DNA from: Thermoplasmata archaeon
GTDB lineage: Archaea > Thermoplasmatota > Thermoplasmata > GCA-020350865
NCBI GenBank assembly: GCA_020348445.1
Contig: CP070751.1
Coordinates: forward strand, 16,832 to 80,831
Direction of reading: 5' to 3'
DNA: 64,000 bases
In this document: positions 687 to 48,744 of the stretch, piece by piece
How positions within the stretch are numbered: the first letter of the stretch is position 1
How the letters are laid out: every line of letters begins with the position of its first letter
Program-made: the position numbers and the translations under genes
The notes under the pieces: model-generated
What the model was told of the DNA's origin: nothing
What the model saw: only the letters and a program-made list of their open reading frames with translations
Databases searched by the model: none

Positions 687-878
687 TTACTCTATCTCAT
701 CCCCTCTTGAACGAATATATACGTTCAGTTCATCCAAATATAATCCAGTTCTGATACACCATCTAACATATGTGGACATGTCCGTATTCAGCCTATCGGC
801 CTCTTTTTTTACATGCTCTAACAATTCTGGATCGATTCTCACCCTGATGGTCTTGGTATATTTTTCCTCAACCGTCAT
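687..878 (-). CDS. ribbon-helix-helix (CopG/Arc/MetJ-like) DNA-binding protein, paralog A
   Basis: 63 aa. N-terminal beta-strand then two helices (KTIRVRIDPELLEHVKKEADRLNTDMSTYVRWCIRTGL). Clear paralog of 1083-1268 and 5742-5933 (shared YTK..V/IR.DPELL..VK.....TD.S.Y/FVR.CIRTG.YL). Confidence 0.75.
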   Translation of the reverse strand: MTVEEKYTKTIRVRIDPELLEHVKKEADRLNTDMSTYVRWCIRTGLYLDELNVYIRSRGDEIE

Positions 879-1393: not shown

Positions 1394-2266
1394 TCATTTG
1401 ATGTCATTGGCCAGCTCCCTTCTTCTTTCTAGATTGGAGAAAACTGTCTTTTCATCCATGAACTCGTTCTCTGCCTCTGCAAAATATTCCACAGCCTTGA
1501 GTATCCCTTCTTTTGTGGGTTTGTTTATATCGAGTCCGGCCCTGGCTATCTCCTGACGAAGGATCACCATGGCCATCCTGGAATCAGAAAATCCCTCGCA
1601 GAAATCAACGATTATTACATCAAGTGCGCCTATAGGGGTGGTTCGGTCAGAATTTCGGCGTATGCCTGTTGCCGTAAGGATTTCATAGACTTTTTTTACT
1701 GGATCTTCATACTTACCTTCAGCAAGAACAAGATGCCCAAGTGCTTCAAATGCCTCCTCAACATTAATTGCCTCCTTGGCACTTGTGGAATAATTTGTTT
1801 TCAATGTACCTCTGAGGATTGTATCAGCAGCGCTGTTGTACCTTTTGGCCATATCCTCCAATTCCTCGGGCTGGAACTCGAAGTCTTCTTTCAAATCCGA
1901 CTTGTTGCACACGAAGATCATGGGCACCTCCTCCACGACCTTGAACAAAAGGGGAATCCAGTATCGCTCCAGACTTTTTAGGGTCTCCTTTCTTGTCAGG
2001 TCTGCTACCAGAATGGCACCGTCTACTCCCACGAACGTCCTGGTTTGAACGGCACTGTACCCTTCCCTGCCGATGAGATCCCAGATCACGAATGTGAGGT
2101 TGTGGGTCTGATCAGGTCTTTGGATCAAAAGGTTCTTTTTAGTGATCTTGCAGCCGACTGTGGAGATGTAGGAGCTTTCGAACACATCGAAGACATATCT
2201 TCGAATGAGGCTTGTCTTGCCCACTGCACTGTCCCCTAAAAGGGCTATCTTCTTTTTCACTGTCAA
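1394..2266 (-). CDS. Ras/Rab-like small GTPase fused to a ~110-aa C-terminal domain of unknown family (paralog 1)
   Basis: All five G motifs are readable: G1 GDSAVGKT, G2 YISTVG, G3 WDLIGRE, G4 NKSD, G5 TSAK. TTG start preceded by AAAGGTGAACAA, the same initiation region as paralog 5952-6830. The C-terminal half (TTPIGALDVIIVDFCEGFSDSRMAMVILRQEIARAGL...) is conserved in the paralog. Confidence 0.85.
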   Translation of the reverse strand: MTVKKKIALLGDSAVGKTSLIRRYVFDVFESSYISTVGCKITKKNLLIQRPDQTHNLTFVIWDLIGREGYSAVQTRTFVGVDGAILVADLTRKETLKSLERYWIPLLFKVVEEVPMIFVCNKSDLKEDFEFQPEELEDMAKRYNSAADTILRGTLKTNYSTSAKEAINVEEAFEALGHLVLAEGKYEDPVKKVYEILTATGIRRNSDRTTPIGALDVIIVDFCEGFSDSRMAMVILRQEIARAGLDINKPTKEGILKAVEYFAEAENEFMDEKTVFSNLERRRELANDIK

Positions 2267-2435: not shown

Positions 2436-4337
2436 CTATATGCCCAATTTTTTCCTGTTCGCCTCTATATGGGCCAAAATACCATCAGCAGCTTTGACTG
2501 GATCCTTCTCCACATTCATCACCCCGCCAGTCACCTGCTTGCAATCTTGAGTTAGGAGCTTCACAAGATCCGGTCCTCCAGTTACAGTGGGAACTGGATT
2601 CACATAAGTATAGAGTCCAAAAGCCAAAGCGAACACGGCATCTATTGTAGCCTTCTGCTCCATGTACTCAGGTGCACACGCTGCAACGGGTAAATCTGGA
2701 ATGGGCACATCTCCCAAGGCTTTGGAAACCGCCCCAACAAGATCAGCTAGTCGGCCTGTATCAGTGCACGTTCCGAAACTGAGAACTGGGGGAATCCCAA
2801 GTTTCTCACATAGGCCTTTAAGTCCCGATCCAGCCAGTTCCTTTGCTTGGGGGCTGCAAAGACCAGCAACCTGCACCCCACCGTTTCCGCAGCCCAAGGA
2901 AAGCACAAGGATGTCTCTTTTTATCAATTCCTTGACCATCCTTACAGTGTGAACATCCTGACCAGTGTCTCTTAGGGTTGTGCAGGAAACCATTCCCACC
3001 ACGCCTCTTATTACTCCATCCTTTATCGCCTCAAGCAAGGGATCCAGTTTTCCCCCCAGGGCCTCTAGTATACTTTCAGTGGAAAAACCCACAATCGCTT
3101 CTTTTACAGGCAATCCTGAGACAGGCTCATTTGATGACCTACGATCCTTGAAATTATCAATTGCCATCTCAAGAAGTCGGGAGGCTTGCGCAACTGCTCT
3201 ATCGGGAATATAATCCACTCGATCCTCTACTCCTTCAAAGGCAACAACTTCACTTATGGGAACAAGTTTGAACTTATATTTTTGGGCATATATTGGATCA
3301 ATGGGCATGGAGCAGTTCATATCACATGCAAAAAGATCAACACATCCGCTGGCCAAAACTGCTTCCTGCATTATCCAGTTTCCTGTGAATCCATAAAAGA
3401 CATCGTCCATCTCCCATCTTTGGATCATCTCCTGGCCAGTCTCGATATTAGCGATAATGCGTAATCCTTTGGCTCCAGCTTTTTTGGCTTTGTCCTGCCA
3501 CTCTGGAGTTCGAGCCAATTGAACCATTGCAAATCCAAGAAAAGGCTCGTGGCCGTTGGGAAGGACGTTCACATAATCCGGATCCAATACTCCAAGATCC
3601 ACACGCATATTATGAGGCCTTGGAATGCCGAATAAAATATCCTGGCAGAACTCGTTCACTATTTGACTTTGGTATGCCATTGCGATACCCAAACGCATGG
3701 CTTTAAGTGCGAGGGTTGCATAATAGCCATCCACGTTTGTTAGGCAGGAGCTTGTAGAGAACATTATCTCCCCGTGAATCCCACCTGGAAATATCCCCAA
3801 TTTTTTCCAGAGCTCCTTACGCTCATTGGGAGCCAGGGCTTCAACAATTTCACTTGGCTCATCATACTTTCTATTGAATTCTTTCTCCACGAAATCACAA
3901 AGGCGAAGGGCAATTTCTTTTTCAGAGCCAGAGGTATCCACACCAAGGCGTGCAGCAAAGGTTTTCAGCTTCTCAGGCTCCTTGATCTCAAAGGGTGTTT
4001 TATCGTTTGCAGTTGCGTAAAGGGTTTTTATTGTCTGGTCTGTATGATAATGATAGGTGGAGGCACCCATGACATTTCTGAGGAGCATCATGCGCATGGC
4101 CATTCCGTCTCCTGTGATGCCGCACACTCCCCTTTTGTCCTTTGATACGTCTGCACGGCACGGACCGTTTGAGCAGAGATCGCATCGAACACCGCCCATA
4201 CAAAAAGGACAGCGTTTGTCGGGATCACCAAAGCCCTGGGCCTCGAAGCGGTCCCAGATATTTGTCATGTTGTCCGATTTGATCTTCTCGTACATTTTAC
4301 GAACTGATTCATGATAAGAAATCCTATCGTCTTTCAT
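2436..4337 (-). CDS. cooS: anaerobic carbon-monoxide dehydrogenase catalytic subunit (CooS family)
   Basis: 633 aa. N-terminal Cys pattern CPFCMGGVRCDLCSNGPCRAD...GVCGITGDGMAMR and the overall length are typical of Ni-CODH CooS. No cooF/cooC/acs genes in the window. Confidence 0.85.
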   Translation of the reverse strand: MKDDRISYHESVRKMYEKIKSDNMTNIWDRFEAQGFGDPDKRCPFCMGGVRCDLCSNGPCRADVSKDKRGVCGITGDGMAMRMMLLRNVMGASTYHYHTDQTIKTLYATANDKTPFEIKEPEKLKTFAARLGVDTSGSEKEIALRLCDFVEKEFNRKYDEPSEIVEALAPNERKELWKKLGIFPGGIHGEIMFSTSSCLTNVDGYYATLALKAMRLGIAMAYQSQIVNEFCQDILFGIPRPHNMRVDLGVLDPDYVNVLPNGHEPFLGFAMVQLARTPEWQDKAKKAGAKGLRIIANIETGQEMIQRWEMDDVFYGFTGNWIMQEAVLASGCVDLFACDMNCSMPIDPIYAQKYKFKLVPISEVVAFEGVEDRVDYIPDRAVAQASRLLEMAIDNFKDRRSSNEPVSGLPVKEAIVGFSTESILEALGGKLDPLLEAIKDGVIRGVVGMVSCTTLRDTGQDVHTVRMVKELIKRDILVLSLGCGNGGVQVAGLCSPQAKELAGSGLKGLCEKLGIPPVLSFGTCTDTGRLADLVGAVSKALGDVPIPDLPVAACAPEYMEQKATIDAVFALAFGLYTYVNPVPTVTGGPDLVKLLTQDCKQVTGGVMNVEKDPVKAADGILAHIEANRKKLGI

Positions 4338-4403
4338 TTTCTAATCCCCCAATTGGTAATGCCCACAATGATTTGGATTATTTAAAACTAATGTGTAGAC
4401 TTT

Positions 4404-4448
4404 TTACTCCCAATCCAAAAGCCTCTTGCCATGAGTTTTGAAAATGGA
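4404..4448 (-). pseudogene. remnant of the 3' end of a PAS-domain (DUF438-type) gene, copy 1
   Basis: Minus-strand reading SIFKTHGKRLLDWE-stop. The 18-nt core TTACTCCCAATCCAAAAG is identical to 9831-9848 and to the true gene end at 10879-10896. No upstream ORF body. Confidence 0.6.
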
Positions 4449-4603: not shown

Positions 4604-5581
4604 CTATCTTTTCCAGTCAGGCCACCAACCTTTTGCGAGCTCCTCAGTCTGTTCAGTGCCGAAGTCGTATATATATACAGTCCATCCAGAAACACGTCCG
4701 CCTCCAGAGATACGTTTAGGCTTGGAAAATGCCTGTTGGGAATCATCGGGCGACCATGAGGGATAACGACTTTCTCCGCCGGAAACAAGCTGGGCTGTGG
4801 GGTTGCTCTGTGTCAAGTCCAGAGTGTATATAGCACTTCCATCAGATCCATCAAGAGCTGGCCATAACGTAAATGCCAGTTTATCTGGAGAACGAGACCA
4901 ATCTAGATCCTTAATACCTGCCTGTTCATAGTCATAGACTGTCACTGGGTCTTCTTCTGAATCAATTGTTAAGATATTGATATACGATTTACCGTCGATT
5001 GCTGTTGTCCAGTCAACAAATGCTATTTCTGTACCATCAGGGCTCCAGGCAATATCCACTAGATAATGCCCTTCATCTGCAGTATAAAGTGTATCAACTG
5101 AACCGTCGCTGAGAGAAATTGTCTGAATCAGCCTTGGGCGCTCACTACCCGTAGAAGGATCGTAGAGCTTTTGAATAAAGGCTATTTCACCACCCAAAGG
5201 TGACCATGCAATACTATATTGGATGTCTTGACACAGGAGTGTTGGTTCGCCTGCCTGCACTTCTCCTTCATTCACAGATATTTCAATAGTGTATAGATCA
5301 TGTGGAATGTTCTTGGTATATGCTATTGATGTTCCATCCGGTGCCCAGGTTGGACTGTATAGATTACCTGCTGAATCCACTTCGACCTGGTTAGTTCCGT
5401 CAGCATTCATCACCATGAGTGCATCATTTTTACCTACTTTAATAAACGCTATTGCCGGATCTGCTGGTGGTTCCTCATCAGGTGGTGGTTTTGGCGGTTT
5501 TTTTGCGGTAGCCATGGGTATGGCCATGCTCACAAGCAAGGACACTAATACTATGCCGATTAACAGCTTTCCTAGTTTCAT
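4604..5581 (-). CDS. secreted/lipid-anchored TolB-like beta-propeller protein (PD40/WD40-like repeats)
   Basis: N-terminal hydrophobic signal (MKLGKLLIGIVLVSLLVSMAIPMATA) followed by a Pro-rich linker. Repeated W(S/A)PDG..IAF motifs are typical of PD40 blades. Confidence 0.75.
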   Translation of the reverse strand: MKLGKLLIGIVLVSLLVSMAIPMATAKKPPKPPPDEEPPADPAIAFIKVGKNDALMVMNADGTNQVEVDSAGNLYSPTWAPDGTSIAYTKNIPHDLYTIEISVNEGEVQAGEPTLLCQDIQYSIAWSPLGGEIAFIQKLYDPSTGSERPRLIQTISLSDGSVDTLYTADEGHYLVDIAWSPDGTEIAFVDWTTAIDGKSYINILTIDSEEDPVTVYDYEQAGIKDLDWSRSPDKLAFTLWPALDGSDGSAIYTLDLTQSNPTAQLVSGGESRYPSWSPDDSQQAFSKPKRISGGGRVSGWTVYIYDFGTEQTEELAKGWWPDWKR

Positions 5582-5647: not shown

Positions 5648-5669
5648 TTTGTCGGTACATGTACATACA
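5648..5669. promoter_or_regulatory. conserved palindromic motif, copy 3 (TTTGTCGGTACATGTACATACA)
   Basis: 16/22 identical to copy 1 and contains the perfect palindrome GTACATGTAC. Lies between RHH gene 5742-5933 and the start of the beta-propeller gene (5581). Confidence 0.4.
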
Positions 5670-5741: not shown

Positions 5742-5933
5742 TCAATATAGCTTTCCTTTCCTCGATCTTAACTCTACATTCATCTCCTTCAAATAAAATC
5801 CAGTGCGTATGCACCCTCTGATAAACGCGGATATATCGGTCCCTTGTACCTTTGCCTTCTTTTTCACTTCTTCAAGGAGTTCCGGTTCAATTCTTATGGT
5901 GAGAACTTTAGTGTACTTTCCTTCCTTTTCCAT
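5742..5933 (-). CDS. ribbon-helix-helix DNA-binding protein, paralog C
   Basis: 63 aa, MEKEGKYTKVLTIRIEPELLEEVKKKAKVQGTDISAFIRGCIRTGFYL. SD AAGGTGG upstream. Starts 18 nt after the GTPase stop. Confidence 0.75.
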   Translation of the reverse strand: MEKEGKYTKVLTIRIEPELLEEVKKKAKVQGTDISAFIRGCIRTGFYLKEMNVELRSRKGKLY

Positions 5934-5951
5934 CTCGCCACCTTTTTTGAA

Positions 5952-6830
5952 TCAGTCTCCAACAATGCTTTCGGCCCACTCTCTTCTTCTTTTCATATTG
6001 GCTAAAACAATATCTCGATCTTTAAACTCACTCTCTGCTTCTGCTAAATACTCAACAGCTGTTAGAATCTTCTCTTTTGTGGGATTGTTAACATCGATTT
6101 TCGCTCTTGCAAGTTCCTGGCGCAGGATTAGCATTGCTATTCTCGAATCCTTGAAATCCTTGCAGAAATCCACCATTATAGCATCCAATGCACCAATGGG
6201 CGTTGTCTTATCCAAATTTCTCTGAATACCTGTTGCAAAGAGAGTTTCAAGGAGAATCTCAACAGTATTATCTGGTTTATACTCACTTAGCATAAAATTC
6301 CCCAAGCTCTCAAAGGCGCATTCGACATTGTTCCCATCTTTTGCACTGGTCGCATAGCAGGATTTTAATCCCTGAAATGTTGTTTTAAGGGATTGACCGC
6401 TGTATCTTCCCGCCAAATCCTCCATATCCTCGAATCCGAACTCGTATTTTCCTTTCAGATCGGATTTGTTACAAGTAAACACCAAGGGCACATTCTCTAC
6501 TATCTTGAACAAAAAAGGAATCCAATATTTCTCAAGGTTCTCCAGGGTCTCCTTTCTCGTAAGATCCGCCACAAGGATTGCACCTTCCACACCCACAAAG
6601 GTCCTGGCATGAAGGGCGTGATATCCCTCTCTACCGATAATGTCCCAGATCATAAATTTGACATCTACATTAGCGTTGGATCTATGAATGGAAAATTCCT
6701 TCATGGTTACCTTGCTTCCTATTGTGGAGGTATAGGAATCCTCGAACTGGTCGAAAACGAATCTTCGAATGAGGCTGGTTTTGCCTACGGCGCTGTCGCC
6801 GAGCAGGACGATTTTCTTTTTTATTGCCAA
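5952..6830 (-). CDS. Ras/Rab-like small GTPase fused to a ~110-aa C-terminal domain of unknown family (paralog 2)
   Basis: G1 GDSAVGKT, G2 YTSTIG, G3 WDIIGRE, G4 NKSD, G5 TSAK. TTG start after AAAGGTGAACAG. 39 nt downstream of the STAND ATPase gene. Confidence 0.85.
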   Translation of the reverse strand: MAIKKKIVLLGDSAVGKTSLIRRFVFDQFEDSYTSTIGSKVTMKEFSIHRSNANVDVKFMIWDIIGREGYHALHARTFVGVEGAILVADLTRKETLENLEKYWIPFLFKIVENVPLVFTCNKSDLKGKYEFGFEDMEDLAGRYSGQSLKTTFQGLKSCYATSAKDGNNVECAFESLGNFMLSEYKPDNTVEILLETLFATGIQRNLDKTTPIGALDAIMVDFCKDFKDSRIAMLILRQELARAKIDVNNPTKEKILTAVEYLAEAESEFKDRDIVLANMKRRREWAESIVGD

Positions 6831-6869
6831 CTGTTCACCTTTCCGTTTGTGATTTTGTAGATTCCACCT

Positions 6870-9683
6870 CTACAAATCCTTGAGCGCTGCTCTCACCTTC
6901 TCTTTTTTCTTTTCCAACTTCAATTCCTTGTAAATATCGATTGCCTTGTTTAGTTGTTCTTTCGCTTTATTAGGATCTCCCTTAGCCTTCCACATCAATC
7001 CAAATTCGAAGTGGGATTCTGCCAATTCCCTTTTTATTCCAATTCCCTTAAAAATCTTTACGCTCTCTTCAAAATTCTCAATGGATTCCTTCCATTTTCC
7101 CTGGTTTGTAAATATAATTCCTAAAATTCTTCTCGAGCTTGCTAGGGTCACTTTTGAACCAATCTCTTTAGATAGTTCAAATGATCGTTTGCAGAAATCA
7201 AATGCTCTTGTCAGATCCTTTTTTCTAAGATAGGCTTCCGCTATAAACCAATAGTTGTAAGCCATCAGTATCCGGTAGCCGATCTTTATAACTATTTTCA
7301 TGCTCTTTTCGAATTGATCAAGGGCTTTGTCATATTCTCCTTTATAAAAGTGTGCAACACCAATGTTGTGTAAAATTACAGCAATCCTCTTTTGGTCACC
7401 CATCCTCTCATGTATTTCTTTGGTCCTATCATAGTATTCAAGGGCTTTGTCATACTCTTCTATTTCAACATGAACAATACCAATGTTCATCATGTGAATG
7501 GCAGTAAATTGCATATCACCGATTTGCTCCGAAATGCCTAGACTTTTTTTGTAGTATTCGAGAGCTTCATTATATTTTCCAATCCACATATGAATTATGC
7601 CGATATTGTTGAGGGACCCTGCGATTCCTTTTTTATCTTCTATTATTTCCCTTATCTTAAGGCTCTTATCGTAATATCCAAGCGCCATTTCTATTTCTCC
7701 TCTTTCTTGGTGCACAGTGCCAATTAGATTTAGGGCATCCGCTTTTTCCCTGCATTCCTCATCTCTAACCAAGAATAGTGCTTCATTACAAATTTTTATT
7801 GATTCATTATATCCTCCCATATGCCTATGACAGTTCCCAATCCCAATCTTAATCTCAGCTTTTTTCTTATTATCAATGCTCAATTCCAATGCACGCTCGT
7901 AAGCCTTGATACTATTCTGATAATCCCCAATCAAGGAATAAATACCTGCCATTTCTTCGAGTGTTTTCCTCCTCTTTTTCGGATTATCCTCAAGTCCAAG
8001 AGCATAGGAATAGAATCTTATTGATTCTTCATTTGAATAATCCTTCTTTGCCTTCTCCGCCGCTTTAAGGAGATAGTGAAGTGCTTTGTCCTTATTCTTG
8101 CATTGATAATAATGAAATGCTAAATCTTCAACCACTTCATCCAGATTATCTTGGCTCAGTGTCTCAACCGAGTTTGCGATTATCGAGTGATAATCCCTTC
8201 TCAATTCTTCTGGTATTTCGCTGTAAAGCACCTCTTTTACTTTGGCATGGTCGAACTTGAAATATCCATTATGGGATTTGAGTAATCTATGAACTTGCTC
8301 TAAACTTCTCAACTGCTCTAAAAGTTGAGTTCTGTTCGTATCCAGGGCATAGGTTAGGATCGATGATGTGAACGTTTCTCCGATGATAGAAGCATAATCC
8401 AATACCTTCCTGTCTTCTTTTTCCAATCTGTTCAATCTTCTTTCAATCACGTTGTATATTTTGGATGGGATTTCGATATCTTTTAGATCTTTGGCTAACT
8501 TCCATGTTCCCTCATCTTCCAAAATGATCTTTTCATCGACTAGGAATTTTATTAAAAGGATAAAGAACAATGGATTCCCTTCGGTCTCCTTGTAGATTCG
8601 ATTCTTAAATTCATCAGTGAAATCGATTTTTCCAAGCAGGACAGACAAAAATTCGTCCATAATCTCTTCGGGTAATCTCGCAAGCTCCATCTTTTTCAAC
8701 AGATCCTCGCGGTCCATCAACTGCATGGTTCCCACAAGAGGATGACTCTTTTCATCCATTGAAGCAACATCCTCAGGTCTATAAGTGCCCATAATAAATA
8801 GCCCAGTCTCTCTCGTGTTTCTAGCGAGGTAGTGCATTAGAGCTAAGGATGATAGGTCTGTCCATTGTAAGTCTTCTATGCATAAAAGAGTGGGCATTTG
8901 CTGTGCCTGCCTTATCAATCCCAAAGAGACATTCTCGAATAATAAATTCCTTCTAATCTTTGGATCATCTTTACCATAATAGATACCGTCATACTTTCCG
9001 GATGTGATAAGAGGTTTGAGGAGCTCGTCGATTCCAGCAACCTTTTTTTCGTCACCACCCCATTTCTCAAGGATTCGTTTAAAAGTTTTTGTTATCTTTA
9101 ATAGGATCTCTCTCATATCGTTTAGCAGGAATTCATTTTCTCTTCCTGTTAGTATAACCACAAGATTGGTATCCTTATAATTATCGATTAATATACGATA
9201 ATTCTGGTATCCTAACGAATTCAAAGTTCCTTTTTCTTCCTCTCCAGACAGCTTTGAAAGAGATTCATTAAGAAAGTCAGTTATAGTGGTAAACATTGAT
9301 GCAAAAACATCAGGATTAAGTTCTGTTTCTTCTCTCACAAGATTTCTTATTAATATGCCCGCATTGGTTACCAGATAAACAGCTTCCACTCGTGGGGCTT
9401 CCTCTGCAAAAAGCGATTCCAGGCCTACAGATCTCAGGGCTTCCATAATGGGCATGAAGGGAGTAAGGGATTCATACATGCAGTTACCTGACAAGATCTG
9501 GAAGCCTTTGGATTGAGCAATCTCTTTCAGCTCGTTTACCAAACGGGTCTTTCCGATTCCTGCCTCCCCTGAGATGAATATTGTCCTTCCTTGCCCTTCC
9601 ATGGCTCTTTCTAGATAAGACTGCAGTTCTCTGAGTTCATCCTCGCGACCAACCATCTTGGGTTGGAGATCTAGATTCTGCAT
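6870..9683 (-). CDS. STAND-type (AAA_16/COG3899-like) ATPase with Roadblock/LC7-like insertion and C-terminal TPR array
   Basis: Likely start is ATG 9683 (MQNLDLQPKMVGREDEL...). The 45 codons upstream in the ORF track run through an AT-rich promoter. Walker A GEAGIGKT, Walker B-like LLCIEDLQWTD, and more than 10 TPR-like repeats (G.Y.EAL.YY.K.L.I). See the separate insertion feature. Confidence 0.8.
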   Translation of the reverse strand: MQNLDLQPKMVGREDELRELQSYLERAMEGQGRTIFISGEAGIGKTRLVNELKEIAQSKGFQILSGNCMYESLTPFMPIMEALRSVGLESLFAEEAPRVEAVYLVTNAGILIRNLVREETELNPDVFASMFTTITDFLNESLSKLSGEEEKGTLNSLGYQNYRILIDNYKDTNLVVILTGRENEFLLNDMREILLKITKTFKRILEKWGGDEKKVAGIDELLKPLITSGKYDGIYYGKDDPKIRRNLLFENVSLGLIRQAQQMPTLLCIEDLQWTDLSSLALMHYLARNTRETGLFIMGTYRPEDVASMDEKSHPLVGTMQLMDREDLLKKMELARLPEEIMDEFLSVLLGKIDFTDEFKNRIYKETEGNPLFFILLIKFLVDEKIILEDEGTWKLAKDLKDIEIPSKIYNVIERRLNRLEKEDRKVLDYASIIGETFTSSILTYALDTNRTQLLEQLRSLEQVHRLLKSHNGYFKFDHAKVKEVLYSEIPEELRRDYHSIIANSVETLSQDNLDEVVEDLAFHYYQCKNKDKALHYLLKAAEKAKKDYSNEESIRFYSYALGLEDNPKKRRKTLEEMAGIYSLIGDYQNSIKAYERALELSIDNKKKAEIKIGIGNCHRHMGGYNESIKICNEALFLVRDEECREKADALNLIGTVHQERGEIEMALGYYDKSLKIREIIEDKKGIAGSLNNIGIIHMWIGKYNEALEYYKKSLGISEQIGDMQFTAIHMMNIGIVHVEIEEYDKALEYYDRTKEIHERMGDQKRIAVILHNIGVAHFYKGEYDKALDQFEKSMKIVIKIGYRILMAYNYWFIAEAYLRKKDLTRAFDFCKRSFELSKEIGSKVTLASSRRILGIIFTNQGKWKESIENFEESVKIFKGIGIKRELAESHFEFGLMWKAKGDPNKAKEQLNKAIDIYKELKLEKKKEKVRAALKDL
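9084..9395 (-). other. Roadblock/LC7 (MglB-like) domain-like insertion inside the NTPase domain
   Basis: About 100 aa between Walker A and Walker B: VEAVYLVTNAGILIRNLVREETELNPDVFASMFTTITDFLNESLSKL...LNSLGYQNYRILIDNYKDTNLVVILTGRENEFLLNDMREIL. By eye this follows the beta-beta-alpha-beta-beta(-alpha) pattern of Robl_LC7. No profile search was run. Confidence 0.55.
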
Positions 9684-9830
9684 CTTCCCCCCACAATGAT
9701 TTATTATCCCCGGGCTATTTATATACAAAACGTTTTTAAAATATATAAGGTTATATGTAAATTTGTGAGATTTTAAAAAATATGAGAGGAATTTAGCAAT
9801 GTTTCTAAAATATTGCATTTTTATAACTTT

Positions 9831-9898
9831 TTACTCCCAATCCAAAAGCCTCTTTTCGCCCTCGAGTTTTTTCATATCAGTTACATCCTGCGAGACCA
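9831..9898 (-). pseudogene. remnant of the 3' end of a PAS-domain (DUF438-type) gene, copy 2
   Basis: Reads ...MVSQDVTDMKKLEGEKRLLDWE-stop versus the intact gene end LEVSQDVTDIKKLEGENRLLDWE-stop. About 68 nt align to 10879-10946 with 6 mismatches. An upstream in-frame stop leaves no gene body. Confidence 0.7.
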
Positions 9899-9981
9899 TG
9901 AGAGGGATAATAGCTACAATAAGTTAAAAAAAAAACCCAAAGGTCAACTCTCGTCATTACTTTAAAATCCAAACCATAGTG

Positions 9982-10485
9982 TTAACTTTTAGCAATTCTT
10001 TCCATAATAGTTTTATAGAGAACCACTGTCATTCTAAAGTCACTCTCAGCAAGCTTGGCAATTACCTCCTTGGCCTTCTTTTTATCGATTTTTTTCATCT
10101 CGACCGCAGCTACAATCAAACCCAAAAGCCCGGTATAATCTCTATTCTCAACATCCGCAACCCTTCTTGCATTTAGCTCGTCTATAATCAGCCTCGCCTT
10201 TTTTTCAGTGAAAAATAAAGTCGCCTCGCCTTCGCCTAAACCATATTTTGTAAACTGTTTCACATTCCCCTTCACTCTAACTGATATTATCCAATCTCCC
10301 ATTGCTTGCATGATCTTGTCAGTTTCTGGATAGTTATGGCCAAGAAGCTCTTTCTCGATGGATTTTGTAATATATATTTTACCCAACAATTTTTTTAAAA
10401 GGTCAAGCTCTCCAATCCTGGATAACGCGATTATGGTGGATGAGTCCACAAAAGTTCTCATACTGACACTCAGCTTTTGAGCCAT
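9982..10485 (-). CDS. PIN-domain toxin (DUF3368-like)
   Basis: The N-terminus VDSSTIIALSRIGELDLLKKLLGKIYITKSIEKEL matches the typical DUF3368/PIN start. Overlaps the upstream antitoxin gene by 16 nt. An alternative start is ATG 10461. Confidence 0.7.
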   Translation of the reverse strand: MAQKLSVSMRTFVDSSTIIALSRIGELDLLKKLLGKIYITKSIEKELLGHNYPETDKIMQAMGDWIISVRVKGNVKQFTKYGLGEGEATLFFTEKKARLIIDELNARRVADVENRDYTGLLGLIVAAVEMKKIDKKKAKEVIAKLAESDFRMTVVLYKTIMERIAKS

Positions 10486-10790
10486 TTCTTGGCTTTCCTT
10501 GTGTCCTTCTCAAGTTCGCTTTCCGAGTATTTGAAGAATGGTATCTCTCTTTTCCCCAGATAGTCAGCCATTTCTTGGATGCTTACATCCGCAAACTCCG
10601 CTGCCCTACATAATGTAAATTCATTGCTCAGGTATTTCTTTTGAGCGATTTCCAGTTTTAAAACCTTAATACCTTCATGAAGTGCATTTCTTGCCACTTC
10701 TGATTTGGTCATATGGAGAATCTCGATTAACTCCTCCATTTCCGATATTTCATCATCGGGTAATCGTATCTGCAAGTTTTCCATATTCAA
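10470..10790 (-). CDS. UPF0175-family antitoxin-like protein
   Basis: 106 aa with an HTH-like segment CRAAEFADVSIQEMADYLGKREIPF, characteristic of UPF0175 partners of DUF3368 PIN proteins. N-terminal RHH-like strand IRLPDDEISEMEELI. Confidence 0.65.
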   Translation of the reverse strand: MNMENLQIRLPDDEISEMEELIEILHMTKSEVARNALHEGIKVLKLEIAQKKYLSNEFTLCRAAEFADVSIQEMADYLGKREIPFFKYSESELEKDTRKAKKWLKS

Positions 10791-10878
10791 CCCATTACAA
10801 TATAATGTTTTGTAATGATATAAAGGTTGTGGTTGTTATTATCTGCAAGTTGTAAGGCAATTGTTTTTTGGGGTTCCT

Positions 10879-12681
10879 TTACTCCCAATCCAAAAGTCTG
10901 TTTTCACCCTCAAGTTTTTTGATGTCAGTTACATCCTGCGAGACTTCAAGGGTGCCCTTGTAAATACCCTCAGAATCCCTCACAGCAAAATATCTAATAT
11001 GTATGAACTTACCATCCAACTGCAGCCAGAACTCGGCAACGTCCTTGTAACCTGCCTTGAATTGATTTAGTATTTTTTGGACGGTATCCACGCTCTTTGA
11101 GGGATGGCATTTCTGAACCTTCCTTCTGATCACTGCGGGACTTCTTGGGAAGATCCTCTCCTTGGTTGCAGAATAATACGCAACCCTATCAGTCTCATCA
11201 ACAAAAGAAATATCCACTGGGAGATGAGTCAGTATCAAATCGATCTGCTCCTTGGATAGAGCGCCTGTAGCCAGAGGTATCTTCTGCTCTTTAACAGGTA
11301 TTTCCAGTATTTGCACCTCTTTTGGCATTTCAAAATCCTCAGGTGGCCATTTCTCCTCAGGTTCAACCCAGGCATAACCTATCTCCTCTTCACCAGATCG
11401 CACCTTTGTCCACTCTGATTGGGATAGTTGTTCAAGACTCATGGGAAACAGTATGTGCTCCTCCTTGTAGATCATCTCCCGGGTTGTTGGGATCAATTCC
11501 TTTAACGTCTTCACAAGTGCGGTGGGTTCCTCCTGGGATAACAGCTCACTTGCCTTTTTTAGCAATGTCCTTACATCATCATGTATTCCCCACATGACCT
11601 GTGAAGGTCCTGAGACATCATGGGACTCAAGCATCGGAAACAGCTGGTTCTCCTTTCTCAGATAATGATAGTCGATCTTGGCAAAGCTTTCAAGTAATCT
11701 CCCCAGTCCTCCACGACAGTCCAAAAATACAGTCTCATTTGGAGGATCCCCCAGCCTTTTCAGCATCTCCTCGATTTCATCCATGATCTTTTCAGCTTCC
11801 CTGTTCTCCTTCATGAATGTGTGAACAGGGTGACCTGGGGGTGCAGTTGGAATCTCTTTTTTATCAAGCGATTCCTTGAAAATCTCAACATGAACATCAC
11901 AAAGTCTCTTTACTTCTTCCTCGGGAATACCCTCATCAATCAATTGTTGCTCCATCTTTGATATCTCGGAGGGATCGACATCCTTTATGAGCTCTCTGAA
12001 TTTATTCTTCAGAACATTCATGTCCTCCCCTTCATGAACCCCCCTTATGATTTCCTTTAGAACCTCCTGCCTTTTATCAGATTCTACTAACTGTTCTTTG
12101 GGTTCCTCAAAAGGTTCTTTAGGTTCTTCAAAAGGCTCTTTAGGTTCCTCAATAGGTTCCCTAGGTTCCTCAAAAGGTTCCTTGGGCTCCTCAATATGTT
12201 CTTTGGATTCCTCAATAGGTTCCTTGGGCTCCTCAAAAGGTTCTTCAAAAGGTTCTTTGGGCTCTTCAAAAGGTTCTTTGGGTTCCTCAAAAGGTTCTTT
12301 AGGTTCTTCAAAAGGTTCTTTGGGTTCCTCACCAGGCTCCTTGGGCTCCTCAAAAGGTTCCTTGGGTTCTTCAAAAGGTTCCCTAGGTTCTTCAAAAGGT
12401 TCCTTGGGCTCTTCAACAGTTTCTTTGGAAAATTCAACCTTAATAACAAGCTCTTCGTTTGTCTTCTCCAAAACCTCCCGTGCGATCTCATTCATAAGCA
12501 GGTTAAGTTCGATTTTACCCATGGATGCTACTTTTTCCAATGTGGCAACCTTGGCCATGGTCTTACGTAAGATACGGCTCTTCAATTGTCGTAAGTCAGG
12601 CGAAAGTTCGGCTAAAAAATCCACCAGAAAAGGATATCTGCTCAATAGAACATCAAGTTTGGTATTAGCGTCAATTTTCAT
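10879..12681 (-). CDS. DUF1858 / DUF438 / hemerythrin-like / PAS domain protein with internal acidic Pro-rich repeat
   Basis: N-terminus MKIDANTKLDVLLSRYPFLVDFL (DUF1858-like). Middle region has His/Glu-rich hemerythrin-like helices (HPVHTFMKENREAEKIM, DYHYLRKENQLFP). C-terminal PAS domain (FVDETDRVAYYS...IRYFAVRD). 108-aa EEPKEPF repeat. Confidence 0.8.
   Translation of the reverse strand: MKIDANTKLDVLLSRYPFLVDFLAELSPDLRQLKSRILRKTMAKVATLEKVASMGKIELNLLMNEIAREVLEKTNEELVIKVEFSKETVEEPKEPFEEPREPFEEPKEPFEEPKEPGEEPKEPFEEPKEPFEEPKEPFEEPKEPFEEPFEEPKEPIEESKEHIEEPKEPFEEPREPIEEPKEPFEEPKEPFEEPKEQLVESDKRQEVLKEIIRGVHEGEDMNVLKNKFRELIKDVDPSEISKMEQQLIDEGIPEEEVKRLCDVHVEIFKESLDKKEIPTAPPGHPVHTFMKENREAEKIMDEIEEMLKRLGDPPNETVFLDCRGGLGRLLESFAKIDYHYLRKENQLFPMLESHDVSGPSQVMWGIHDDVRTLLKKASELLSQEEPTALVKTLKELIPTTREMIYKEEHILFPMSLEQLSQSEWTKVRSGEEEIGYAWVEPEEKWPPEDFEMPKEVQILEIPVKEQKIPLATGALSKEQIDLILTHLPVDISFVDETDRVAYYSATKERIFPRSPAVIRRKVQKCHPSKSVDTVQKILNQFKAGYKDVAEFWLQLDGKFIHIRYFAVRDSEGIYKGTLEVSQDVTDIKKLEGENRLLDWE
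12091..12414. repeat. 21-nt (7-codon) tandem repeat encoding about 15 copies of EEPKEPF
   Basis: Directly visible in the DNA and the protein. It generates three spurious repeat-frame ORFs in the track. Confidence 0.95.
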
Positions 12682-12750
12682 TTTTTACCCCCCTGTAATC
12701 CAAGCCTACATCGAATAGGAAAATATAAATGTAATGGCCAAATTTGGGCT

Positions 12751-13755
12751 CTACCTAAGATATTGACCGCAAGTTTTGCATTTGGATTCATGCTCCAGAT
12801 TGACTGTTTGACAGCTTGGACATTTTACATAACCCACTGGGACAACTGCTGAATCATCCCCCTTTGGTATTTGCTGTTCATAATCCATATCTCTTTTATA
12901 CCGAGGTTGCGGGCTCTGATATGTGGGATAATGACCTCCTGAATCTTGATATGTGTGTGGAGGTGTTACCTCCATTAGGTCAGACGGTATTATATTGACC
13001 TGTCCTGTCGTGGCATACCGATAGAGGGCCGCGGTAAGCACTCCCTGGGCTGCTGTGGAAATGCAGAAAAGAACTATGAAATAGACTATCCCCACACTCA
13101 GGCCCACCCAAATCCAAATTCCGCCTGCCATGATCCCCAAGACGATTGGAATCACTCCTAAAAGACCGAATAAGAAGAAGATTATTCCCAGGCCAAAGGA
13201 GGATATAAACGTCTCTCCCCATGTATCCTTGAAAACATGGGCACTTCTTTTGACGGCTTTAAAAACTGATACCTTCTCATATATCAAAACAGGTATTATA
13301 AAGAAAGTGGCCATGGTCCACGCAAATCCAATTAATGAGATCATGATTCTTCCCAGGGCATCCATTCTTTCTTCAAGTGCCCTTAATATCAAACCAACTG
13401 TTGCGGCAAGTACTGCCCACCCCAGTATTCCCTTTATATTTTCATTGGCGATTCTAAAACCGTCTTTTAAGGTGGGGTCGCCGCCCTGTAACCTAATGGT
13501 AGCGCATCCGATCACAGCGGTATTGAAATATATTCCAATAAAATAAAGTATAAAATAGAGCAAAATAAACAATACCACCATTAGGATACCATTTGAAAGG
13601 AAAAGACCTGTAAAAAAGATGCCCAGGATAAATGTCATTCCTATCACTGCCATAACTATACCTGCTATCAGAGGAAACAGCAGTATTTCCTTATCCTTTC
13701 TTATGACACCCAAGCTGATTTTCATGAGCTCCCAACTACGACCAAATCGACCCAT
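12751..13755 (-). CDS. polytopic membrane protein with C-terminal zinc-ribbon
   Basis: 334 aa with about 6 hydrophobic helices. Tail is Pro/Tyr/Gln-rich and ends CPSCQ...CKTCG. Confidence 0.6.
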   Translation of the reverse strand: MGRFGRSWELMKISLGVIRKDKEILLFPLIAGIVMAVIGMTFILGIFFTGLFLSNGILMVVLFILLYFILYFIGIYFNTAVIGCATIRLQGGDPTLKDGFRIANENIKGILGWAVLAATVGLILRALEERMDALGRIMISLIGFAWTMATFFIIPVLIYEKVSVFKAVKRSAHVFKDTWGETFISSFGLGIIFFLFGLLGVIPIVLGIMAGGIWIWVGLSVGIVYFIVLFCISTAAQGVLTAALYRYATTGQVNIIPSDLMEVTPPHTYQDSGGHYPTYQSPQPRYKRDMDYEQQIPKGDDSAVVPVGYVKCPSCQTVNLEHESKCKTCGQYLR

Positions 13756-13902
13756 TTGATCACCTCGATGTTATAAATTCAATTTTTAATCAAGACCCAA
13801 ATCCAATTTATCTATAATAAATATATTGTTATTATTATCGTCGTGAACTTAAAGTGCAAATGTAGGTTCATAAGAGCAGAATGTCAACGGGCAAATCAGT
13901 AT

Positions 13903-14826
13903 CTATCCTTCTAATATGTCTCCTTTTACGCCAATTGTGTAATCCTTTACTGGGATATCTTTGCCTGAATCTCCAATGGCATCCTGAATCAGCTTCACAA
14001 GACCAAAGCAGCACAGAACCTCCATATGAGCAACTGTTATGGATTTTATATTGTTGACCTTAAGAATCTGGGCGATCTTCTCCCTATAGAATGCGTAGTC
14101 ATCCAATTTAGGACAGCCTACAAGCAGTATCTTGTCTTTCAAGAAACCATTGTGGAAATCGGGGTATGCAAAGGGAACGCAGTCAGCAGCAATCAAAAGA
14201 TCAGCATCTTTAAAATACGGTGCATTTGGAGGAACCAACATGATCTGAACGGGCCACTGTCTCAGCTGGGATACTCCTTTAGGAACTACCTTTGTAACCT
14301 CCTCAACGCATTCCTCTTCTTCTTTTCTAAGATCCATAACTGCAGATCCTAGACATCCGCAGGGAAGTGTATCCTCCTTCTTTTCTTCCCGAAGGTCCAT
14401 CACAGCTGAGCCCGGGCATCCGTGGACTCCACCTTGAGAAGGGGCAGGCTCCTCTTTGGGCTCTTCCCCAAGTTGCGGAACCTCCATAATGTTCTCCTTT
14501 AGGTAGTCTATTGCCTGGTTCAAATATTCAGTTTGACCGTGTTCTTTGAGATGCACAAGATGAGCCTCAATAACATTGGGTCCCTCCTTTACAACATTAG
14601 CCATGACCTTTTTCTCATCGTACTCCTCGGCCTCTCTTTCCTCAATTGAAATGGCATCAACTGGGCAGTGGCCAATGCAGGCTCCAAGCCCATCACAGAA
14701 TAAATCTGAAATTATTCTTGCCTTGTCATCAATAATTTGAAGAGCTCCTTCGGGACAGTTGGGAATACAATCTCCGCAGCCCGTACAAGTATCCTCATCG
14801 ATCTTGATTATCTGTCTTTTTACCAT
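13903..14826 (-). CDS. 4Fe-4S dicluster domain protein with duplicated C(P/L)GSAVMDLR motif
   Basis: CTGCGDCIPNCP and CDGLGACIGHCP ferredoxin motifs at the N-terminus. Internal duplication HGCPGSAVMDLREE / CGCLGSAVMDLRKE. C-terminal Cys-containing domain. Confidence 0.7.
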   Translation of the reverse strand: MVKRQIIKIDEDTCTGCGDCIPNCPEGALQIIDDKARIISDLFCDGLGACIGHCPVDAISIEEREAEEYDEKKVMANVVKEGPNVIEAHLVHLKEHGQTEYLNQAIDYLKENIMEVPQLGEEPKEEPAPSQGGVHGCPGSAVMDLREEKKEDTLPCGCLGSAVMDLRKEEEECVEEVTKVVPKGVSQLRQWPVQIMLVPPNAPYFKDADLLIAADCVPFAYPDFHNGFLKDKILLVGCPKLDDYAFYREKIAQILKVNNIKSITVAHMEVLCCFGLVKLIQDAIGDSGKDIPVKDYTIGVKGDILEG

Positions 14827-40215: not shown

Positions 40216-40219
40216 TTTA

Positions 40220-41377
40220 TTAATCCCTCCTTTCTTCCAGTTCACCCTCAAGTGGATGTAATCTTGACCACACATCCCCAAGAAATTTCAAGTAAGAGAT
40301 ATAATTATCCCCAGAACTCTTGATTAGATAGTTATCACTAAGAGTATTAAGGATTGTTTCTATCCCCTGGTCCTTAAACGAAGAAATGATAACAGGTGTG
40401 ATTTCGCCCATTAAGAGTATTCTGGTTACTAATTGTGTCCTATTTCTAGAGAGAGTTCCAGTGCGAGTTAAATCTCCCTCGATTAAGTGAATATATCCAA
40501 TAAGGTCTTGAAGAGGACCACCTCCGGTACTTCTTCTATTATATACATCGACAACCTGTTGAAGACATCCATCATAAATCTCTTTTATAACTTCTTCAAG
40601 TTTTATTTTTTTCTGCGGATCGATATCGACATTAACCTTATCATTGCTTATTTCATTAGTAATTATCTTCTGCCAATCCTCGCTAGATCTAAAATGAGAT
40701 CGAACTGTATGGGTTATGAATCGATCTAGAAATAAAGGGAAAAGCGAGTCTTTTCCAAAGCACATAGTAATTGATTCTGTTAGGACCGATAAAATACCAT
40801 CTGGTAGAGTCTGACCATTCCCTAAGAAACATTCTTTTATAAAACCCTGTGCTGTATCTTCATCGAATGGTTCAACATATAGTGGAACGAACATGGCTCG
40901 AATTTTATATGCTTTTTTATAATTTTCTAGTATCTTATCAAAACCAATTGAGCCACATATTATCATTTGTATTCCTAGTTTATCTGGTATCCATAGGAGA
41001 CCATCGAGAAATTCATGTCTTTCTTCTTCGGTCATTTTATCCAAAGAATCGGATAGTTCATCAATTATAATTATACAATCAGTGTTTTTTCTTTTTAAAA
41101 ATTCATAGACCTCATACATTACTTCTACCCAAGAATCTTCTGGTGCTTCACGGGGTGTATTTACATGAAATAATCGCTTCATACTGTTCGCAATAGTAAC
41201 CGGGGAGCTTACACCTGTAGTTTCACAATTAAAATAATAAAACTTGGTCTCTAATCGATCATTAAGATTTTCAAGGATTGTTGTCTTTCCTACTTTTCTT
41301 GGACCACAAACTTGAATATGTCTTCCTTCACTTAGAAGCTTTTCAATAGCTTTTACATCTTTTTCCCTATCATACAT
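40220..41377 (-). CDS. archaeal-type ATPase (COG1672/Arch_ATPase-like) with C-terminal wHTH-like region
   Basis: Walker A CGPRKVGKTT, Walker B IIIIDELSD. Confidence 0.7.
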   Translation of the reverse strand: MYDREKDVKAIEKLLSEGRHIQVCGPRKVGKTTILENLNDRLETKFYYFNCETTGVSSPVTIANSMKRLFHVNTPREAPEDSWVEVMYEVYEFLKRKNTDCIIIIDELSDSLDKMTEEERHEFLDGLLWIPDKLGIQMIICGSIGFDKILENYKKAYKIRAMFVPLYVEPFDEDTAQGFIKECFLGNGQTLPDGILSVLTESITMCFGKDSLFPLFLDRFITHTVRSHFRSSEDWQKIITNEISNDKVNVDIDPQKKIKLEEVIKEIYDGCLQQVVDVYNRRSTGGGPLQDLIGYIHLIEGDLTRTGTLSRNRTQLVTRILLMGEITPVIISSFKDQGIETILNTLSDNYLIKSSGDNYISYLKFLGDVWSRLHPLEGELEERRD

Positions 41378-48100: not shown

Positions 48101-48744
48101 CCATGCCCTACCACATCATTTGGATTGTAGGTCCCGTCCTTTGATGTGGCATCTTCTTCGAATGAGACACCGGCCACAAATTTACCCATTAATGACTCGT
48201 GATACTCATCCACACCTGTGTCGATGATGGCGATATTGATTCCCTTTCCAGAGTAACCCAATGTCCATGCCGTGTTGGGGGAATATTCTGTGGAGTTTCG
48301 GGCCTTGATTGCCGGGTTACTAACATCCAGATGAGGTTCGATTGGTAATTGAAGTTCTATCATTCCCACCCCGGGTAATTGGCGAAGTCTCATGATGTCT
48401 TTCAAATGGACATCTCTTGCCGAAATGGTGTTGATGAACTCAAAGACGTACTTCAGTTCTAAATCGAATTCTGTGACTATTTCTGAATCTGATTGTTTTA
48501 GTTCTCGCTCGTATTTTAAGTAAATCGGCACCCGCTCATTTAAATTGGATGCGATTTTTTCATCTATTAAATCGTCGATACCGTTGCGATTTTTATCCCT
48601 TTCCCAATGCTCCCACCAGAAATCATTGGATGATTCGTCCCCAAAATCGGAGTCGATGGCATCACTTGAAATTGCCACTGAAAAGCTCGATGACAGGAGC
48701 ATTATTGAAAATAACCAAAACACTGCAAGAACAGTTTTTTGCAT
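45109..48744 (-). CDS. extracellular subtilisin-like (S8) serine peptidase with multiple FN3/Ig-like domains, TM anchor and cytoplasmic zinc-ribbon tail
   Basis: Catalytic triad contexts AIIDTGVD, GHGTYCAG, GTSFAAPHVAG. At least 6 repeats of about 95 aa (T.DE.S.S.VEYG...Y.H.ITLTGL...TTYYFRV.S.D). TM helix LIIALVAIIIIAVV. Alternative start 48765. Confidence 0.85.
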   Translation of the reverse strand: MQKTVLAVFWLFSIMLLSSSFSVAISSDAIDSDFGDESSNDFWWEHWERDKNRNGIDDLIDEKIASNLNERVPIYLKYERELKQSDSEIVTEFDLELKYVFEFINTISARDVHLKDIMRLRQLPGVGMIELQLPIEPHLDVSNPAIKARNSTEYSPNTAWTLGYSGKGINIAIIDTGVDEYHESLMGKFVAGVSFEEDATSKDGTYNPNDVVGHGTYCAGIALGTGGTTDLDLDGEPDFMGVATDAKIIDVQYSINLGATSDQMTRSIQWVIDYKDTDWPDQPDEYDGIDVISISSDIDGTPGEAAAAAAESGIIVVTSAGNDGPNNPPPSVTAWPDKVIVVASVFDQETISRDDDTLAVSSSRGPRVDGALKPDISAPGQFITAPTRNSYKRYGLPTGIEASGTSFAAPHVAGVVAMMLEVAPNLTPDEVIWILHETAEARGDPYDPEQSDKYNEDFGWGIVDAYMATLMTQEYDDRPPIITDISVQVSGITATINWLTHKKANSIIDYGTSQSQLTESKSDLDNYTYNHSMTLTGLDEGTDYYFKIKGYDENNIGPGESPIGNFTTEILPDTTPPGIYNVEIIGKSDSTATIFWNTDELADSKVEYGLTAEYGSMVIDIKMVWVHSITLFGLESDTTYHFRINSSDASLNYNLSEDFNFTTDDTPDILDPVITELTVRDITDTTAIIEWKTNEPCNWIIKIGETDSYGKVYSDLDYYWKEFSIKLTGLKPSTRYYYRVESKDPSDNNASIGDETIYFYTEGPPDTTPPYIESGPQVTMITHSTASIVWTTDEKSDSLVEYGFDKDDYESEKRDDNYVLIHNITLTNLKSDTTYHFRVKSRDSSPNANEIVSVDDTFKTLIAPDITPPIMIGSPITIIGEYTATITWITDESSTSEVIYGTELNMGYSEKDDSKVKEHMITITGLTPSTTYYFRVKSTDEAGNVFESYNYSFETPEVVIPIDIRFNNLGKGDILTGVVTIMGEVTGGTGDIQSIEYRIDNETWKSLGKDRTFAIELDTSVYSEGEHTLYVRAMVGEVSMEEDITFFVEHQEKAGERETSSWLPYLIIALVAIIIIAVVPAISRMRRRPRPTSETLDLMEEIDGVEGPFSIGFTPTSDAQEIGFIPDEEPEISDGTEDEISFIPDTTALSEEPEVTFISGIEPVSFSVEEEIPHHLVYDTVRCPRCKRLFNADISSSIQCPDCGFSADLRR

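Follow-up and report, generated by a model that had tools for sequence, protein, structure and literature searches.

Results

Layout of the locus

The 64,000-nt stretch of a Thermoplasmata archaeon genome analysed here (contig CP070751.1; hereafter the window) carries on its minus strand three co-directional open reading frames (ORFs), which encode a STAND ATPase with an insertion of predicted Roadblock-like fold, a Rab/Roc-like small GTPase and a ribbon-helix-helix (RHH) protein, and which are considered below as a candidate signalling module (Table 1). The intergenic gaps measure 39 nt and 18 nt, as had been stated in an original prediction made from the sequence alone, and terminator-like sites on the same strand were not found between the trio genes. 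NCBI protein calls agree in length for the first two genes, at 937 residues (P0131, identical to gene 1) and 292 residues (P0001). By inspection, a TATA-like element lies approximately 35-45 nt upstream of the ATG at 9683, a position which fits this codon as the STAND start.

Table 1. Features of the trio, its associated elements and its paralogues in the window.
Feature	Position	Strand	Details and basis
STAND ATPase gene (gene 1)	6870-9683	-	937 residues; ATG at 9683 inside longer ORF 6870-9818
Walker A GEAGIGKT, residues 39-46	9546-9569	-	translation; nearly invariant in STAND alignment A2
Predicted Roadblock-like insert, residues ~93-235	8979-9407	-	AlphaFold2 fold, Foldseek; Pfam marginal
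Walker B LLCIED (LLCIEDLQW), residues 266-271	8871-8888	-	translation; C, E, D, L, Q, W nearly invariant in A2
Tetratricopeptide repeat array, residues ~570-930	6894-7976	-	presumed sensor or scaffold; Pfam TPR families, PDB TPR matches
Rab/Roc-like small GTPase gene (gene 2)	5952-6830	-	292 residues; TTG start, AAGGTGA 5 nt upstream
Switch II DIIGRE, residues 63-68	6627-6644	-	Arg67 at Ras Gln61 position; alignment A1
GTPase C-terminal five-helix domain, residues 178-292	5955-6299	-	invariant residues in A1, A4
RHH (CopG-type) DNA-binding protein gene (gene 3)	5742-5933	-	63 residues
Perfect 10-bp palindrome GTACATGTAC	5655-5664	.	spacer between gene 3 and propeller gene; judged chance
Secreted PD40/TolB-like beta-propeller gene, probably associated	4604-5581	-	Pfam PD40, TIGR02800
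29-nt perfect direct repeat, upstream copy	9826-9854	-	block boundary; remnant of hemerythrin/PAS gene 3' end
29-nt perfect direct repeat, downstream copy	4399-4427	-	block boundary; 0 mismatches, none expected by chance
Second GTPase paralogue	1394-2266	-	290 residues; 62% identical to gene 2, phmmer 5.9e-115; Pfam Ras/Roc
RHH paralogues	1083-1268, 687-878	-	phmmer 8e-21, 3e-20; downstream of second GTPase

The STAND ATPase and its insert

Gene 1 appears to be a member of the AAA_16-TPR class of STAND proteins, without the output domain usually fused to them. As predicted, it combines an AAA_16 domain (PF13191; 1.6e-24, 87.7 bits, cut-off 32.6) with a C-terminal array of tetratricopeptide repeats (TPRs), detected most strongly by TPR_12 (5.8e-60 over seven stretches) and also by TPR_1, TPR_2, TPR_10 and TPR_MalT. 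Between the two, residues 241-561 match positions 612-917 of TIGR03903 at the sequence level (3e-52), which is the post-NTPase (nucleoside triphosphatase) arm region of a kinase/cyclase STAND. The AAA_16 match spans residues 10-296 yet covers profile positions 2-165 only, so that some 120-140 extra residues separate Walker A from Walker B. Members of the STAND family are expected to bind a ligand and then to oligomerise in an ATP-dependent manner. There are three STAND paralogues on the 5.16-Mb contig of this genome (the others being P0195 and P0213) and eight on a related 4.23-Mb contig. The window also offers an internal contrast, a second AAA_16-like protein with TPRs (938 residues, 37465-40281, minus strand) which has neither the insert nor a GTPase neighbour. 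The first 62 nt of its gene overlap the 3' end of an upstream archaeal ATPase_2-family gene (385 residues; region 37465-41377).

The insert consists of a core (residues 98-200) followed by a conserved W-G/D-G extension and an SGKYDG motif. Pfam and NCBIfam scans of the insert and of eight domain-bearing proteins returned nothing usable. A sequence-profile search of the PDB with the insert gave weak, spurious matches only (for example SlmA at 2e-3) and was thus uninformative, so that a comparison of folds was required. Residues 81-260 were modelled with AlphaFold2 from an alignment of 49 sequences (mean predicted local distance difference test, pLDDT, of 80.4), and the modelled core has the order beta-beta-alpha-beta-beta-beta-alpha by DSSP, which is the Roadblock topology. 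Foldseek gave 71 PDB hits to the model at E ≤ 1e-3, most of them to dynein LC7/Roadblock chains, MglB (6izw, 6h5b, 1j3w, 3t12), LAMTOR MP1-p14, the Streptomyces Roadblock 3kye, Asgard Roadblocks and longin subunits; Mon1-Ccz1 and chains of TRAPPII are also among the fold matches. Matches at a probability of 1.00 included 8glv_AK (6e-5), MglB 6izw_C (7.8e-5) and 3l9k_A (TMt 0.61, root-mean-square deviation 3.7 across 87 columns). Several homologues are, moreover, named by JGI as a 'regulator of Ras-like GTPase activity (Roadblock/LC7/MglB family)', a COG2018-type label. The predicted Roadblock insertion therefore holds at the level of the fold, by AlphaFold2 and Foldseek, and fails by the Pfam Robl_LC7 threshold; the model suggests a remote rather than a routine member of the Roadblock superfamily, assigned by fold. 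Helix alpha2 and the W-D/G-G extension are the segments most conserved across the domain architectures described below, a pattern that in the aligned sequences is consistent with a common interaction surface.

The small GTPase

Gene 2 is matched by Pfam Ras (1.4e-29, 103 bits) and Roc (1.8e-25). Its closest sequence match in the PDB is a Thorarchaeota Rab (7ezb, 5.9e-22), and the best 60 of 867 such matches are Rab, Ran and Ypt proteins, with MglA not among them. All five motifs are present and invariant, or nearly so, in the family alignment A1 (G1 GDSAVGKT, G2 T36, G3 DIIG, G4 NKSD, G5 SAK), as had been predicted.

Switch II departs from the Ras pattern. All 23 GTPases of the STAND-linked clade share WD[IL]IGRE, and thus an Arg directly after DxxG, while the distant paralogues which share the C-terminal domain have at this position 26 Gln, 2 Lys and 1 Ser. 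As far as the alignment goes, the change from Gln to Arg seems to be specific to the STAND-linked clade. An Arg at the position of Ras Gln61 is also present in the Roc domain of LRRK2 (DFAGRE), there too beside repeat-rich scaffolds.

The approximately 115 conserved residues which follow the G domain were modelled as five helices (AlphaFold2, pLDDT 82.4). Pfam has no match to them and the best PDB fold match has an E of 0.98, in agreement with the original description of an unassigned C-terminal domain. The protein ends in ...ESIVGD, with no prenylation-type C-terminal Cys motif, and neither a lipidation site nor an amphipathic membrane anchor is evident in its sequence. Identity between GTPases of different orders is 60-68%, and the paralogues are old and stably kept. 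Tandem rows of up to four Ras-like GTPase genes were also seen (L029, L040, L044, L049, L052, L054, L056, L059, L068, L077, L078), in which GTPases of about 180 residues are mixed with Gln-type GTPases of about 270 residues that carry the same C-terminal helical domain.

The RHH protein and the downstream spacer

Gene 3 passes the RHH_1 cut-off of 20.5 bits (24.8 bits, 2.1e-5), which supports its identification as an RHH DNA-binding protein; matches to the NCBIfam models aCcr1 and MobA are far below their cut-offs. The gene that follows, encoding the beta-propeller, had been predicted to be secreted, and both its PD40/TolB-like repeats and its signal-peptide-like N-terminus agree with this. 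It has homologues near the module in L003, L083 and L087.

The spacer between the two genes was said to hold a conserved palindrome, and this claim did not survive. The perfect 10-bp core lies in an imperfect 20-bp palindrome (5650-5669). When the 160-nt spacer is shuffled, 30% of the shuffled versions contain a perfect palindrome of 10 bp or more, and the window contains 72 of them. Among 85 loci, the palindrome recurs at the equivalent position in the same-strain contigs L001 and L002 only, with one more match elsewhere in L024, and the orthologous spacers in L003 and L087 have different sequences. We therefore rejected it as a conserved RHH operator, being at chance level and absent from orthologous spacers. 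A k-mer comparison of six upstream regions likewise found no shared candidate operator, only gene-end repeats.

Conservation of the gene set

Neighbourhoods were compared in a GTPase-based set of 80 loci on one-genome-per-species contigs, all from Thermoplasmata, Methanomassiliicoccales and relatives. An insert-bearing STAND adjoins the GTPase, in either order, in 8 of the 12 closest GTPase loci; in one other, its place is taken by a divergently oriented gene for a protein with eight transmembrane (TM) helices which ends in the same Roadblock-like domain. The RHH gene is found just downstream in five of these 12. With the STAND as the starting point, 18 loci could be evaluated; in about 10 of them a GTPase gene adjoins it, and the two genes often overlap or are no more than 30 nt apart. 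In about 15 loci an RHH gene directly precedes the STAND or follows the GTPase. Synteny of the three families extends to many further loci of Thermoplasmata and Methanomassiliicoccales, in which the gene order varies, and the trio is a conserved, rearrangeable unit that is not obligatory for each family member.

The second GTPase of the window (1394-2266), which also belongs to the Arg clade, has no adjoining STAND; it lies directly downstream of a Prismane/CO-dehydrogenase-family gene (2436-4337). In locus L083, the genes after the STAND are orthologous to this second GTPase-RHH-RHH set (72-76%), the RHH genes being 74-76% identical to the two RHH paralogues of the window, and not to the GTPase and RHH genes of the trio. 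Partners have thus been reshuffled.

Extra neighbours that recur in a survey of 33 loci (148 clustered ORFs) are NosD/beta-helix proteins (five loci), PD40 propellers (four) and BNR propellers (three). The GTPase, insert and STAND families also have members filed under Asgard labels (P0054, P0126 and P0154; Hodarchaeales, Hermodarchaeota), which could reflect horizontal transfer or mis-binning.

The Roadblock-like domain in other architectures

An exhaustive search placed the domain in 791 representative clusters; a word-indexed search with the insert alone gave 10 fragments. Typical carriers are STAND proteins of about 1000 residues with the domain at residues ~85-225. Elsewhere, 8-TM proteins of about 430 residues end in it with their cytoplasmic C-terminus, their genes being adjoined by one or two Ras-like GTPase genes, and so do 1740-residue single-pass proteins with cadherin/Ig-like regions, also encoded beside Ras-like GTPase genes. 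One protein of 542 residues has two copies of the domain and, again, an adjoining Ras-like GTPase gene or genes. This proximity to GTPase genes in proteins other than STANDs argues for a real coupling of domain and GTPase, and the membrane proteins which carry the domain are likely to represent a family of receptor-GTPase pairs with no Pfam annotation. Membrane-protein loci of this kind were noted in L046 (1315-2652), L055 (5645-6928), L012 (6459-7778), L079/L082 (~8760-13990), L062, L064 and L072. P0321 (261 residues) joins a response-regulator receiver domain to the Roadblock-like domain and so connects the latter with two-component signalling.

Some STANDs of the family are themselves built as receptors, with a signal peptide or ectodomain, one strong TM helix, the AAA_16 domain with its insert, and TPRs. 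The ectodomains are large and of FG-GAP, He_PIG, NosD/beta-helix, fn3 or cadherin type. Both receptor-STAND genes that were located have an Arg-clade GTPase directly after them; in L120, the receptor STAND and its Arg-clade GTPase are followed by two RHH genes and by genes for secreted beta-helix proteins. Taken together, these independent architectures suggest that the domain is a GTPase-coupling module and that the cell envelope is where the system has its ties.

Surface proteins among both neighbours and fusions would also suit a spatial or trafficking module akin to MglA/MglB, in which a membrane site or pole is marked by the GTPase, the STAND-Roadblock protein governs where or when the neighbouring surface proteins are secreted or assembled, and there is little or no transcriptional output. 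The GTPase is Rab-like, and polarity is what MglAB controls (PMC9481161). Such a role is made very unlikely by the lack of an evident membrane anchor in the GTPase, by the neighbour survey, which found no conserved pilus, secretion or cytoskeletal genes nearby, and by the DNA-binding RHH protein being the most faithful third component.

A repeat-bounded block

The trio and the propeller gene form a four-gene block enclosed by the pair of perfect 29-nt direct repeats. The repeated sequence is the 3' end of a DUF1858/DUF438/hemerythrin/PAS_10 gene, present in three copies (4399-4427, 9826-9896 and 10878-10944), and a 67-nt repeat pair of 91% identity encloses a toxin-antitoxin pair upstream of the STAND gene. 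This pair (UPF0175 and PIN-like DUF3368; 9982-10790, minus strand) directly precedes the STAND gene, as it does in L083 as well, and matches PDC-S70 (3.7e-25), which PADLOC lists as a candidate defence system. Two copies of the gene-end repeat flank an AbiEii cassette at the same junction in L083, and a remnant of it lies right before an orphan GTPase in L006. The site has the appearance of an insertion hot spot in which cassettes stand in tandem, but an integrase is not seen.

This setting bears on the alternative, raised in the original prediction, of an antiviral or conflict system, in which an Avs-like STAND-TPR receptor would switch the GTPase through the insert and, with the RHH protein, trigger growth arrest or another form of protection. 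STAND plus TPR is the classic layout of an intracellular pattern receptor (PMC13581612), and many diversified STAND paralogues are found per genome. The alternative gains slightly from the hot spot, with its direct repeats, its PDC-S70-type pair and the AbiEii cassette of L083, to which may be added Cas4-like PD-(D/E)XK genes near the module in L084 and L085. Neither PADLOC nor effector domains support it: PADLOC-DB 2.0 gave generic TPR/P-loop matches only (SngB 8e-4, BrxD 2e-3) and none for the GTPase or the RHH protein, and neither the STAND and GTPase nor the conserved neighbours showed a nuclease, protease, TIR, SIR2 or pore effector. The fusion of ectodomains through a TM helix points to extracellular rather than cytoplasmic sensing, the fusion of receiver and Roadblock-like domains to ordinary signalling, and the high conservation, age and stable retention of the GTPase paralogues also speak against conflict. 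A role in defence thus seems unlikely.

Discussion

A proposed module of sensor ATPase, GTPase switch and DNA-binding output

We read the trio as a three-component signalling module which runs from sensor ATPase to GTPase to RHH protein and is linked to the cell envelope, and we give this reading a probability of approximately one half. The STAND ATPase, with its AAA_16 NTPase, putative helical arm and TPR array, would be sensor and scaffold. Its Roadblock-fold insert may, by analogy with the free Roadblock proteins MglB, CvnB and Ragulator, serve as a built-in docking or regulatory platform for the Rab/Roc-like GTPase encoded next door, which it would contact physically and control in the role of GTPase-activating protein (GAP), in that of guanine nucleotide exchange factor (GEF) or by recruitment. 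Since the insert is part of the nucleotide-binding domain, and since Roadblock proteins act as dimers, an ATP-driven change or oligomerisation would create or expose this platform. With the catalytic Gln replaced by Arg, the GTPase should be a slow or partner-dependent switch, and its output surface is likely to be the conserved C-terminal domain of five helices. The co-inherited RHH protein would be the DNA-binding end of the pathway, with targets of its own, or an autoregulator. The module probably receives its biological input at the envelope of the cell, because relatives of the STAND are single-pass receptors with large ectodomains and its recurrent neighbours are secreted beta-helix and beta-propeller proteins.

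Several observations weigh against this reading. Firstly, the isolated insert found no match in Pfam even at E ≤ 10, and among 13 aligned domain members two match Robl_LC7 (PF03259), the best with an E of 0.02, below the gathering threshold; homology to Roadblock proteins is suggested by the modelled fold and a third-party COG label, the similarity in sequence being marginal. Secondly, the partners are not always together: about 40% of the loci with an insert-bearing STAND lack a GTPase gene next to it, among them those of a 1158-residue subfamily and of the most distant members, and some GTPase-RHH sets, one of them in the window, have no adjacent STAND. Nor was a fusion of Roadblock and GTPase found among ten short domain-bearing proteins, which proved to be STAND fragments and the one fusion of receiver and Roadblock-like domains. 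Finally, a hot spot holding Abi and toxin-antitoxin cassettes suits accessory or conflict genes no less than signalling genes. An RHH operator was not found either, the palindrome being at chance level.

The frequent lack of an adjacent GTPase and the marginal sequence similarity to true Roadblock proteins would also be accounted for if the insert were an internal regulatory, ligand-binding or dimerisation element with no GTPase contact, the GTPase and RHH protein acting downstream or in parallel through the TPRs or the C-terminal domain of the GTPase. The profilin-like fold is common to Roadblock, longin, GAF and PAS domains (PMC2651865), profilin-like and GAF-like folds often serve in such ways, and TPR arrays are themselves common protein-docking surfaces. 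We hold this to be distinctly unlikely, given that the same domain ends unrelated membrane proteins precisely where GTPase genes adjoin, that its top structural neighbours are GTPase-regulating Roadblocks and not GAF or PAS domains, and that JGI assigns it to the MglB family.

Extending the reading of the trio as a sensor-GTPase-RHH module, we tentatively propose, at somewhat less than even odds, an unrecognised archaeal paradigm in which a receptor-class STAND, soluble or single-pass, directly drives a Ras-superfamily switch through its built-in Roadblock domain, with an RHH protein as transcriptional output. Under the same joint proposal, this would be a prokaryotic counterpart of the route from receptor through GEF or GAP and small GTPase to gene expression, kept in multiple paralogues in Thermoplasmatota and tied to surface proteins.

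Relation to described systems

The nearest parallel is MglA-MglB of Myxococcus xanthus and Thermus thermophilus, where a Roadblock-fold protein is likewise encoded beside a Ras-superfamily GTPase, and whose MglB is among the structures that match the insert best. MglB is a Roadblock homodimer which binds one MglA-GTP in a 2:1 complex, with GAP activity residing in the dimer face and GEF activity in the C-terminal helix (PMC9481161, PMC11016934). The dimer tunes hydrolysis or exchange and supplies no catalytic residue, and Roadblock/longin proteins generally form GAP or GEF platforms (PMC9481161, PMC11016934). The present system differs in that its Roadblock is not free but inserted in the NTPase domain of a 937-residue STAND, that its GTPase is Rab/Roc-like by PDB sequence matches, with Arg for the catalytic Gln and an extra helical domain, and that an RHH protein belongs to the set while polarity or motility genes are not linked.

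The conservons of Streptomyces (CvnA-CvnD) are similar in being multi-copy sets of sensor, Roadblock/LC7 protein and small GTPase (PMC4316618), and a Streptomyces Roadblock (3kye) is among the fold matches of the insert. Their sensor, however, is a membrane histidine kinase, whereas here it is a STAND-TPR protein fused with the Roadblock domain in one polypeptide, in an archaeal lineage and with a GTPase of a different family. Neither a CvnA-type histidine kinase nor a CvnC protein (DUF742) is encoded in the window or among the neighbours that recur. The proposed module would work along the lines of MglA-MglB and the conservons but is a member of neither.

The NTPase, the C-terminal TPR array and, to judge by the TIGR03903 match, probably the helical arm are shared with AAA_16-TPR regulators of the MalT/AfsR/GutR type and with Avs STANDs, from which the present protein differs in lacking a fused helix-turn-helix or effector domain, its output seemingly passing through the separate GTPase, and in that some members are transmembrane. 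A Roadblock/longin fold also binds GTPases within larger assemblies in Ragulator-Rag, Mon1-Ccz1, TRAPP and the GTPase-Roadblock fusions of Asgard archaea (PMC9481161, PMC10933270). None of these is known to have an ATPase around the Roadblock. In Asgard archaea, GTPase genes were found, as a rule, not to share operons with those for Roadblock proteins (PMC10933270), whereas the pairing here is operonic in layout. Finally, the Pfam Roc match of gene 2 recalls Roco proteins and LRRK2, but here the GTPase is encoded as a small protein of its own, without a COR domain.

A literature search that included a survey of the prokaryotic Ras superfamily, a study of Asgard GTPases and Roadblocks and a 2026 census of prokaryotic STANDs revealed neither a Roadblock domain within a STAND nor the gene trio, which bears out the statement that no system with this wiring had been described. 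Already known is the Roadblock similarity of some homologues, as marked by database auto-annotation. The GEF and GAP complexes of eukaryotes are thought to have grown from pairs of Roadblock protein and GTPase as an ancestral unit of regulator and switch, and we know of no prokaryotic case of a Roadblock taken up into a larger machine. With such a domain inside an ATP-driven receptor that also exists in transmembrane versions, and with a cognate, genetically linked GTPase that has lost the catalytic Gln, the coupling of ATPase and GTPase becomes testable in a compact system of three proteins. If confirmed, the module would represent a third major signalling logic in archaea, beside two-component systems and Ser/Thr kinases, and it may explain how large archaeal families of surface proteins are sensed or controlled. 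Should it serve defence instead, it would provide the first case of STAND immunity that signals through a small GTPase.

Other genes in the window

The hemerythrin/PAS_10 gene whose 3' end is repeated around the block (10879-12681, minus strand) encodes a long series of near-perfect EPKEPFE repeats at residues ~90-190, which give rise to long spurious ORFs on the opposite strand. Further along the window, large putative surface proteins are encoded at 45109-48765, 56763-60614 and 60704-64000; among them are a subtilase that carries fn3 and purple-acid-phosphatase-N repeats and, as separate proteins, Ig-like ones of Big_5/Big_13 type. The genome is rich in the kinds of envelope protein that are, elsewhere, fused to or adjoin the STAND family.

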